Assembly (NCBI RefSeq): GCF_055900595.2
Contig: NZ_CM148325.1
Reading direction: 5' to 3' (one strand)
DNA: 64,000 bases
The notes beneath the pieces were generated by a model. It had not been told where the DNA came from. It saw only the letters and a list, made by a program, of their open reading frames with translations, and searched no databases. This document shows positions 20,885-30,864 of this stretch, in pieces. Numbering within the stretch: the stretch's first letter is position 1; the number at the start of each line of letters is the position of its first letter. The position numbers and the translations under genes are program-made.

Positions 20885-21382
20885 TTAGTTTTGTGTGTCG
20901 AGGGTAGAGAGTTCTTTGTCGATAAAATACAGACCTTCGCCGCTTTTGCCTGCCAGGCTTAATTTATCAATAATCGATTTGAACAGTTTCTCTTCTTCAT
21001 GCTGCTCAGAAACATACCATTGCAGGAAATTAAATGTTGGGTAGTCCTGATTGGTCATTGCAGCATGAGCCAGTTCGTTAATTTTCTGGGTGATTAATTG
21101 TTCGTGTTTATAGGTTTCCTGGAATAATTCATCAAGTGAGGAATATTCAGCAAACGGAGATTCAACGGTATTAATACGCGGTAAATTGCCGGTATCAGTC
21201 AGGTAATCAAACAGACGCTGCATATGCGTCATCTCTTCCTGGGCGTGACGGCGCAGGAACGCGGCAGCACCTTCGAAGGTATGATAGCTGCACCAGGCGC
21301 TCATTTGCTGATAAAGCAGTGAAGAGTACAGTTCCAGGTTCATCTGCTCATTAAGTTTTTCAATCATTTCTGGTTTCAGCAT
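20885..21382 (-). CDS. ftnA: Ferritin FtnA
   Basis: Track ORF 20885..21397 trimmed to ATG 21382 ([13 protein letters not shown]...); matches K-12 FtnA (165 aa). Confidence 0.93.
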
Positions 21383-21552
21383 GATAGTGCTCCACAAAGG
21401 TTATATTTGTTGCTGTGGCGTCACTATAATTTGTTATTTTATTATTTGCAAAAGGTAAAATATAAACTTCAATTATTAAAAATACGAATGGGAATAAAAC
21501 GCATTACCGCTATTTCTTTAATCAGCGAAGATCCCCTCGCTGATTAAAATAT

Positions 21553-21876
21553 TTAGAGAAAGACAGGGAAGGCGGAATGATGGCACTGATATGACAAAGT
21601 GAATTCCGTATTCAAACATAAGGAACCCGCAAAAAGGCTACAGTTGCCTACTGGCTGACCAAAGGGGACCGCGTGGGTATAGCCTTCCTGCTGGCATGCG
21701 CGATCGGCGATCCCGCGACTGACATAACGATCGGTATGGGCATGCTGCAAAAAAGCCTGGTCATAAACCAACCGTACAATACCTGTTGCCGCGTCAACTT
21801 CGCTCACATGGGCCTGGCGAGTAACCGTACACCCCGCCAGCGTTATTAATGAAAGAGTCAGAATCAGAAGTCTCAT
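21553..21876 (-). CDS. yecR: Lipoprotein YecR
   Basis: Track ORF 107 aa; lipobox LAGC; matches K-12 YecR. Confidence 0.85.
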   Translation of the reverse strand: MRLLILTLSLITLAGCTVTRQAHVSEVDAATGIVRLVYDQAFLQHAHTDRYVSRGIADRACQQEGYTHAVPFGQPVGNCSLFAGSLCLNTEFTLSYQCHHSAFPVFL

Positions 21877-22040
21877 GGTCCAGCCAGAAGAGTAAGAGAA
21901 AGCACTATTTTACGCGTTACAGCGCTGCGACAATGGCCGGAAAAGACGCCTGGCAGGCGCTATTTCTTGCCATCTGTAGGTGTCAGAAATAGGGGGGCTG
22001 TTTTTTGATTATCATTTTTATAACATTAAAGGAGTATTTA

Positions 22041-22056
22041 TGTGATTTGTATCACA
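22041..22056 (+). promoter_or_regulatory. CRP binding site upstream of azuC
   Basis: TGTGA-TTTGTA-TCACA, perfect match to both CRP half-sites; about 85 nt upstream of the azuC ATG. Confidence 0.7.
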
Positions 22057-22138
22057 TAAAGATTGATTTTTGTGATGGTTGTCATATTATAAGCGCAAAG
22101 ACAATAACACCTGTATAACAAATGGTCGGAGTGCCGCG

Positions 22139-22225
22139 ATGAAACTGCGCAAAATCCTGAAAAGTATGTTCAATAACTATTGCAAGACGTTCAAAGACGT
22201 ACCGCCAGGCAATATGTTCCGATAA
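22139..22225 (+). CDS. azuC: Small membrane-associated protein AzuC (28 aa); mRNA also acts as the dual-function sRNA AzuCR
   Basis: ATG at 22139 translates MKLRKILKSMFNNYCKTFKDVPPGNMFR then TAA; below the ORF-track size cutoff; followed by an intrinsic terminator. Confidence 0.8.
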   Translation: MKLRKILKSMFNNYCKTFKDVPPGNMFR

Positions 22226-22226
22226 T

Positions 22227-22253
22227 AAAAAACCTGCTCCGGCAGGTTTTTTT
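22227..22253 (+). terminator. Rho-independent terminator of azuC
   Basis: CCTGC-TCCG-GCAGG hairpin followed by TTTTTTT. Confidence 0.8.
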
Positions 22254-22339
22254 GTGTCCTGATGACGGTGGATGTGACTATCGCTGAAGATGTGAAGCCG
22301 CTACTATAACGGCTTTCAAAATGCTATCAGGAGTTTACG

Positions 22340-22591
22340 ATGTCCCAGCCGCTGAATGCCGATCAGGAACTGGTTTCTGATGTGGTTGCTTGCCAGTTGG
22401 TTATCAAACAAATTCTGGATGTTCTCGATGTAATCGCGCCCGTTGAAGTTCGTGAAAAAATGTCCAGTCAGCTGAAGAATATCGACTTTACTAACCATCC
22501 CGCCGCCGCAGACCCGGTCACCATGCGGGCAATCCAAAAAGCCATCGCGCTTATTGAACTCAAGTTTACCCCACAGGGTGAATCCCATTAA
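22340..22591 (+). CDS. yecJ: Uncharacterised protein YecJ
   Basis: Track ORF 83 aa; matches K-12 YecJ as recalled. Confidence 0.85.
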
Positions 22592-22669: not shown

Positions 22670-23173
22670 TCAATGCAGCTGGTGTGACACGACATTCAGA
22701 ACATGTTGGTCGGTCTGCACAGGGCACATACCCGCAAGTTTCGCACTGCGCACTTCATCAAGAATGGTTTGCAGCAACAGACCATCATGCTGCTGTTCTT
22801 TTTCCAGATCGCGCAGGAAATTGACGGTTGAATCATCATTCAGTTCTTTCGCTTCATCGGCTAACTGTGCCAACGTACTAGAACGTTGCTCGTATTCTTC
22901 CATCGTTTTTTGGAACAGTTCTTCCAGAGAGTTCAGTTTTTCACCGGGAACATCAATGGCTTTAACGATGGGGGTAGCGCCGACACTCTTCATAAAGTTA
23001 AACATGCGCATCATTTGGGTCACATTACTCTGTGCCTGGGCGCGAAGGAAAGTGGCGGTGCCGTTCAGACTCTGTTCAGAACACCAGTTACTCAGGTGAA
23101 GGTAGAGATTGGATGCGTAAAACTCGCGGTTCATTTGAGAGTTGAGTTTGAGAAGCATTCCAGCGGTTGCCAT
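22670..23173 (-). CDS. ftnB: Ferritin-like protein FtnB (YecI)
   Basis: Track ORF 167 aa; ferritin-like fold, paralogue of ftnA; matches K-12 FtnB. Confidence 0.9.
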
Positions 23174-30848: not shown

Positions 30849-30864
30849 TGTGATCTGCATCACA
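30849..30864 (+). promoter_or_regulatory. CRP binding site of the flhDC class-1 promoter
   Basis: TGTGA-TCTGCA-TCACA, perfect CRP half-sites about 270 nt upstream of the flhD ATG; the surrounding 780-bp AT-rich region 30346..31124 is the flhDC regulatory region. Confidence 0.8.

Follow-up and report, generated by a model that had tools for sequence, protein, structure and literature searches.

AzuCR of Escherichia coli K-12 (b4434, with AzuC as b4663) is a dual-function RNA, which encodes a small protein and also acts by base-pairing. AzuCR is abundant in glucose and scarce in glycerol or galactose, 'due to CRP-mediated repression', and the AzuC protein binds GlpD, raising its dehydrogenase activity (Raina et al. 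2022, PMC8915982, and its preprint). The RNA pairs with the cadA and galE mRNAs via a region overlapping the ORF, and is itself paired by FnrS 25-31 nt upstream of the ORF, which represses AzuC synthesis; both interactions were demonstrated by compensatory mutations (PMC8915982). Two other dual-function RNAs are comparable. Spot 42/SpfP (spf) is, like AzuCR, a cAMP-CRP-repressed small RNA of carbon metabolism that pairs with the gal operon mRNA and encodes a tiny protein (PMC8916003, PMC8915982). Its sequence is unrelated to that of AzuCR, the target of SpfP (15 aa) is CRP itself and that of AzuC is GlpD, and the pairing region of AzuCR lies inside the ORF, unlike that of Spot 42/SpfP. SgrS/SgrT is likewise an enterobacterial dual-function sRNA, in which sugar metabolism is tied to a small protein acting at the membrane (PMC8915982). 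Unlike AzuCR, it is SgrR-activated and not CRP-repressed, has separate coding and pairing regions and is Hfq-dependent, and its sequence is unrelated.

The locus described here lies within a 64-kb stretch of DNA, the whole of which is referred to as the window. Of 5426 complete E. coli genomes, 5419 contained a match to a 501-base query over the region, in many cases with 100% identity, and RefSeq labels the gene in the matching chromosomes 'azuC: stress response protein AzuC', between yecR and yecJ. At this locus E. coli MG1655 carries both a CDS, azuC (b4663), and an ncRNA, azuR (b4434, 1987843-1988001, minus), the latter mapping to 22097-22255 of the window by orthologous position and sequence. 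Over 463 intergenic bases, four differences separate the window from MG1655, and promoter, CRP sites and ORF are all identical. One of the four SNPs, the single difference within the RNA region 22097-22255, directly follows the stop codon (TAAT versus TAAC), and the other three fall outside functional elements. Beyond these SNPs there is no difference of substance from the AzuCR/AzuC locus of E. coli K-12, which has the same neighbours, yecR and yecJ, and an identical promoter, ORF and terminator. An earlier note on this DNA had proposed an azuC small-protein and dual-function-RNA locus, an identity borne out by the 100% identity to annotated azuC loci and by an NCBIfam equivalog match. Taken as a whole, it is very nearly certain that 22041-22255 is E. 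coli azuC/AzuCR (IsrB, IS092), with its own promoter, a transcript of ~159 nt, its own terminator and CRP repression. The gene, its protein, the function of the RNA and the control by CRP are all published and annotated already. Features of the locus are listed in Table 1. The yecR-azuC-yecJ cluster is flanked by two minus-strand paralogues of the ferritin family, ftnA (20885-21397) on one side and ftnB on the other.

Table 1. Coordinates of the azuC regulatory, transcribed and coding features in the window, with the neighbouring genes.
Feature	Position	Strand	Basis and remarks
yecR	21553-21876	minus	Gene in 21.5-23.2 kb
Distal CRP site, TGTGATTTGTATCACA	22041-22056		10/10 consensus; centre -48.5 from the TSS at 22097
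-35 hexamer, TTGATT	22063-22068	plus	Promoter scan, 16-bp spacer; TTG invariant, ATT 92-97%
Proximal CRP-like site, TGTGATGGTTGTCATA	22071-22086		9/10 consensus; centre -18.5
-10 hexamer, TATTAT	22085-22090	plus	Promoter scan; 93-100% conserved; ends 6 nt before the TSS
AzuCR (azuR/IsrB/IS092) transcript	22097-22255	plus	159 nt, MG1655 annotation; TSS is the A at 22097, MG1655 1988001
CACCTGT box, 5' UTR	22108-22114	plus	Published FnrS 5'-end target; 25-31 nt upstream of the ATG
Shine-Dalgarno, GGAG	22128-22131	plus	GG-G invariant, A 98% in 59 sequences
azuC CDS	22139-22225	plus	28 codons + TAA; ORF, annotation, NCBIfam match, codon-position pattern
Rho-independent terminator	22227-22253	plus	Stem AAAAAACCUGC/GCAGGUUUUUU, loop UCCG, then U run
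yecJ	22340-22591	plus	Gene in 21.5-23.2 kb; DUF2766
ftnB	22670-23173	minus	Gene in 21.5-23.2 kb; ferritin family

The 87-nt ORF, previously read as encoding a 28-aa peptide, stands as described, with ATG at 22139, TAA at 22223-22225 and a translation that is exactly MKLRKILKSMFNNYCKTFKDVPPGNMFR. The GGAG motif sits about 7-9 nt 5' of the azuC start codon among the sequences compared (7 nt in the window). The peptide matched the NCBIfam equivalog model NF033642 stress_AzuC with 75.9 bits (cut-off 30, E = 1.3e-21), and a comparison with Pfam returned no model for it. Among 54 distinct coding sequences, the numbers of variable sites at codon positions 1, 2 and 3 were 10, 11 and 26 of 27; the azuC frame had a pN/pS of 0.16, and the two other sense frames had 3.2 and 0.89. 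Judged by its conservation, the azuC frame is a genuine protein-coding gene under selection, because a Shine-Dalgarno motif, a start codon and a fixed length are combined with a frame-specific codon pattern and a low pN/pS. Residues 1-20, taken as a helix, have a hydrophobic moment of 0.53, a value reached by 1.0% of shuffles, and the net charge is +6. AzuC is an amphipathic, basic peptide; its membrane association is taken from PMC8915982 only.

The transcript was first described as an sRNA candidate (PMC8915982), and with an ORF this short it could be read as solely a non-coding sRNA (IsrB/IS092) whose 28-codon frame arose by chance, the more so as one antisense frame over the CDS is also stop-free, in 58 of 59 sequences. 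This reading is scarcely credible, and the conservation pattern already refutes it. Both the codon-position pattern and the pN/pS of 0.16 are particular to the azuC frame, and the Shine-Dalgarno motif, start codon and stop position are conserved along with the equivalog match. The open antisense frame has a pN/pS of 1.9, and the antisense frame that shares wobble positions with azuC contains stops in 59/59 sequences; the latter frame also has a low ratio, because its wobble positions are common with those of the azuC frame. An antisense gene over azuC was rejected on the same figures. Published work has also detected the tagged AzuC product, with ribosome profiling in support (PMC8915982).

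The spread of the gene was followed by a YecJ-anchored scan of genome assemblies, which yielded 80 species-level loci, and a local tblastn for the AzuC ORF. The ORF was present in 58 of the 80 loci, in each case as the immediate upstream neighbour of yecJ. It occurs in 11 named genera: Escherichia, Citrobacter (amalonaticus/sedlakii group), Enterobacter, Lelliottia, Leclercia, Kosakonia, Silvania, Huaxiibacter, Pseudenterobacter, Pseudescherichia and Pseudocitrobacter. Among the same 80 loci, the ORF was not found in Salmonella, C. koseri, the C. freundii complex, Buttiauxella and one Escherichia sp. (L004). This last locus (Escherichia sp. MOD1-EC7003, 2389-2500) has kept yecJ and the azuC terminator and has lost the azuC promoter and ORF; its similarity to the window starts at 22227 and covers the terminator and downstream DNA only. 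The copies that are present all keep GGAG and a start codon, and encode 27-28 codons throughout. The pattern of GGAG followed by ATG or GTG holds in 57 of 59 sequences, and two Pseudocitrobacter loci start two codons earlier. yecR adjoins azuC in only a minority of loci.

The +1 of AzuCR has been placed at MG1655 1988001 (PMC8915982). The size of the RNA is given in two ways: PMC8915982 reports 164 nt with the CDS at nt 40-126, and RefSeq MG1655 reports 159 nt with the CDS at nt 43-129. An intrinsic terminator had been noted right after the ORF, and this was confirmed: the hairpin at 22227-22253 begins 2 nt past the stop and folds with -14.9 kcal/mol, which corresponds to z = -5.3 against dinucleotide shuffles (0/200 shuffles as stable), with the U-run ending at 22253. 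Across genera the stem is invariant and the loop varies, 99.3% of cells being paired; as the stem never varies, no covariation was found in the terminator across genera. A simple terminator scan did not report the 22227-22253 hairpin, probably because its A-run pairs with the U-run, leaving no free T tail. In the yecR-azuC intergenic region, the same scanner flagged 21947-21959, part of a small GC-rich plus-strand hairpin, CGCCTGGCAGGCG, with a T-rich tail (21947-21969). The fold of the whole AzuCR RNA is only marginally more stable than its shuffles (z = -1.7). An Rfam scan gave no family at gathering score and turned up no AzuCR/IsrB model; sub-threshold matches to STnc370 and rsmX were set aside as not meaningful, being driven by the terminator hairpin.

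Wherever azuC is present, yecJ follows it on the same strand at a distance of 65-122 nt, an arrangement that would also suit a leader ORF and terminator serving chiefly as an attenuator for yecJ. In three loci of the Pseudescherichia vulneris group (L060, L061, L065), the yecJ ribosome-binding site directly follows the azuC terminator and leaves no space for a TACTAT box, which hints at azuC-yecJ read-through co-transcription and favours the attenuator. In leader peptides, selection is rare outside the regulatory codons, whereas the AzuC peptide itself is under strong selection. The azuC terminator is strong and invariant, and no alternative anti-terminator pairing with covariation was seen. 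Most loci have a conserved -10-like TACTAT before yecJ (22302-22307 in the window), and Salmonella, Buttiauxella and the C. freundii group have yecJ but no azuC. Together with the trans functions shown for AzuC and AzuR (PMC8915982), these observations make an attenuator role for azuC very unlikely, and azuC is better described as a gene with its own transcript and products.

The published pairing interactions were examined at the level of the sequence. The 5' UTR motif CACCUGU is complementary to nt 1-7 of FnrS, GCAGGUG (FnrS sequence from MG1655), and lies within a strongly conserved 5' UTR block, 22105-22120, in which the box reads CACCUGC in most genera. The complementarity and the conserved box agree with the published target. 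Pairing of FnrS with the CACCUG(U/C) box blocks AzuC synthesis anaerobically. At seven loci with a GTG in place of an ATG start codon (L035-L037, L042, L045, L046 and L022, from Enterobacter and one Lelliottia nimipressuralis assembly), the box is AGTTGT in place of CACCTGC, and control by FnrS may be weakened or lost there.

For AzuR, the pairing region overlaps the ORF, so that translation and pairing compete. The best local duplexes use AzuCR nt 89-114, with -24.2 kcal/mol for cadA (-16 to +9) and -20.0 kcal/mol for galE. Windowed duplex energies of AzuCR with cadA, galE and FnrS were no better than those of shuffles (as good in 6/40 shuffles for cadA and 18/40 for galE). Because the computed duplexes do not beat shuffles, the pairing function of AzuCR rests on the published experiments. 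In most genera the sequence of the FnrS box, CACCUGC (22108-22114), recurs in the 5' arm of the terminator as ACCUGC, and the 3' arm repeats the FnrS seed, GCAGGU (terminator region 22232-22246). In principle, the 5' UTR box could thus compete for that 3' arm.

A perfect CRP palindrome had been proposed at 22041-22056, and it has 0 mismatches to TGTGA-N6-TCACA. Its placement about 85 nt upstream was a fair estimate, with 82 nt between the end of the site and the ATG. The site corresponds to 1988042-1988057 in MG1655 and lies within a strict inverted repeat, TTATGTGAT/ATCACATAA, spanning 22038-22059 with a 4-nt non-symmetric centre. Two exact matches to TGTGA-N6-TCACA were found in the 64-kb window, against 0.09 expected by chance. 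The second, TGTGATCTGCATCACA at 30849-30864, falls between uspC and flhD, some 260-275 nt 5' of the flhD start, and presumably corresponds to the CRP site already known from the flhDC promoter. As an account of the CRP sites at azuC, the earlier description holds for the distal site but overlooked a second CRP-like site at 22071-22086, which overlaps the -10 hexamer. Extending from -26 to -11, this proximal site takes in the promoter spacer together with the first two bases of the -10 hexamer.

To describe the promoter footprint, 59 sequences from 11 named genera were aligned and the information content was calculated per column. Both CRP-like sites are present in 59/59 sequences, with starts exactly 30 bp apart. 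In the distal site, GTGA (22042-45) is invariant and TCACA (22052-56) is 95-100% conserved. In the proximal site, TGTGA (22071-75) and TCATA (22082-86) are 95-100% conserved, nine of the ten positions being invariant. The 6-bp spacers of both sites are nearly free to vary, and no conservation was seen upstream of 22041 in this alignment. By this cross-species footprint the distal site is more than a chance match, a consensus scan alone being weak evidence.

The carbon-source control that the earlier note considered consistent with the site is upheld by the literature, in which glucose raises AzuCR (PMC8915982); the note left unstated that CRP acts here as a repressor. According to PMC8915982, which cites Hemm 2010, deletion of crp raises AzuCR, and more than one of the 'predicted CRP binding sites' is drawn in the azuC promoter in a figure whose legend credits Hemm et al. 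2010. For the small protein, the dual-function RNA and their carbon control, PMC8915982 cites Hemm 2008 and 2010. No CRP footprint or ChIP at either site was found in the searchable literature. On the published crp-deletion and carbon-source phenotype, and with CRP sites that are predicted, CRP is a repressor of the azuC promoter and not an activator.

The opposite possibility is that the CRP site activates azuC, or the divergent yecR, with expression rising without glucose. Most perfect CRP sites are activating, and the distal site is placed between divergent genes, with the start codon of yecR 165-180 bp away. CRP activates from centres at -61.5 and further upstream (class I) or at -41.5 (class II), and the centre at -48.5 is out of register with both. 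Both sites stay linked to azuC in genera without an adjacent yecR; because they are kept with azuC in most genera and yecR adjoins it in only a minority, the sites serve azuC and not yecR. With azuC expression higher in glucose and in the crp deletion (PMC8915982), activation from this site is highly improbable, and repression is the reading retained.

The geometry of the promoter suggests how such repression would work. A sigma-70 promoter (TTGATT, 16 bp, TATTAT) starts the AzuCR RNA at 22097. When glucose is absent, cAMP-CRP would occupy the two sites, whose centres are 30 bp apart and which lie roughly on one face of the helix (30 bp ~ 2.9 turns). CRP centred at -18.5 would sit over the spacer and the beginning of the -10 hexamer and sterically exclude RNA polymerase, so that the proximal site, 22071-22086, is probably the occluding site. 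The distal site, centred at -48.5, is adjacent to the -35 hexamer and to the alpha-CTD/UP region, and its occupation would block upstream contacts. With its perfect consensus, it is probably a high-affinity anchor that helps to load the weaker proximal site. These roles, and any cooperativity between the two sites, we infer from their geometry, their conservation and the published crp-deletion phenotype. If the numbering of the paper is used (164 nt, CDS at nt 40-126), the centres would move to about -51.5 and -21.5, and the conclusion is the same.

Operators of the FNR/CRP family are, like the azuC palindrome, inverted repeats of 16-22 bp for a dimeric regulator, and this palindrome has been assigned to both proteins. 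CRP sites (GTGA...TCAC) and FNR sites (TTGA...TCAA) are told apart by two discriminator positions. In Ekdahl et al. 2025 (PMC12266141), FNR, PhoP and NarP motifs are described in the azuC promoter, mutation of each of which derepresses it, and the FNR motif is given the coordinates 1988039-1988058 of MG1655. Mapped on the MG1655 sequence, this interval is exactly the distal palindrome. The paper places occupancy changes 'further upstream', apart from 'two previously annotated CRP sites'. The PhoP (22035-22052) and NarP (22022-22038) motifs of PMC12266141 lie mostly in DNA that is unconserved beyond Escherichia in the 59-sequence alignment.

An alternative reading of these data would make the palindrome at 22041-22056 chiefly an operator through which FNR represses anaerobically, with carbon control acting via the proximal site only or indirectly. 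Derepression upon mutation of the motif or deletion of fnr, and an earlier FNR ChIP-seq peak near the promoter, both as given in PMC12266141, favour this view, and GTGATTTGTATCAC matches TTGAT-N4-ATCAA at 8/10 positions. The discriminator positions, however, are G and C in 59/59 sequences, and the T and A of an FNR operator are never present there. In this the azuC palindrome differs from FNR operators, its discriminators being CRP-type in every genus examined, and selection has therefore kept a CRP-type site. Since the palindrome matches the CRP consensus at 10/10 positions, its mutation would remove CRP binding as well, and the reporter assays of PMC12266141 were performed in stationary-phase glucose medium, where cAMP rises. 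A site mainly for FNR is unlikely on this evidence. The distal palindrome is better regarded as a CRP site, which FNR may use alongside CRP. A more tentative proposal, possible though we do not favour it, is that the palindrome is an operator common to the paralogous regulators CRP-cAMP and FNR, and that the rigidly conserved 30-bp tandem forms one cooperative repression complex for carbon and oxygen.

As a discovery, azuC in this window is minor, and its worth is as a positive control, in which the raw sequence alone gave the 28-codon gene and its regulator site. The additions made here are the cross-genus selection on both CRP-like sites and on their 30-bp spacing, the occurrence of AzuC in at least 11 named enterobacterial genera, and the identity of the FNR motif with the CRP consensus site. 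The motif assigned to FNR is physically a consensus CRP site, which matters for reading the promoter mutants of PMC12266141. If the operator is indeed shared, the 'FNR site' of 2025 and the 'perfect CRP site' would be one and the same, and the published phenotypes of FNR-site mutants would in part be CRP phenotypes.
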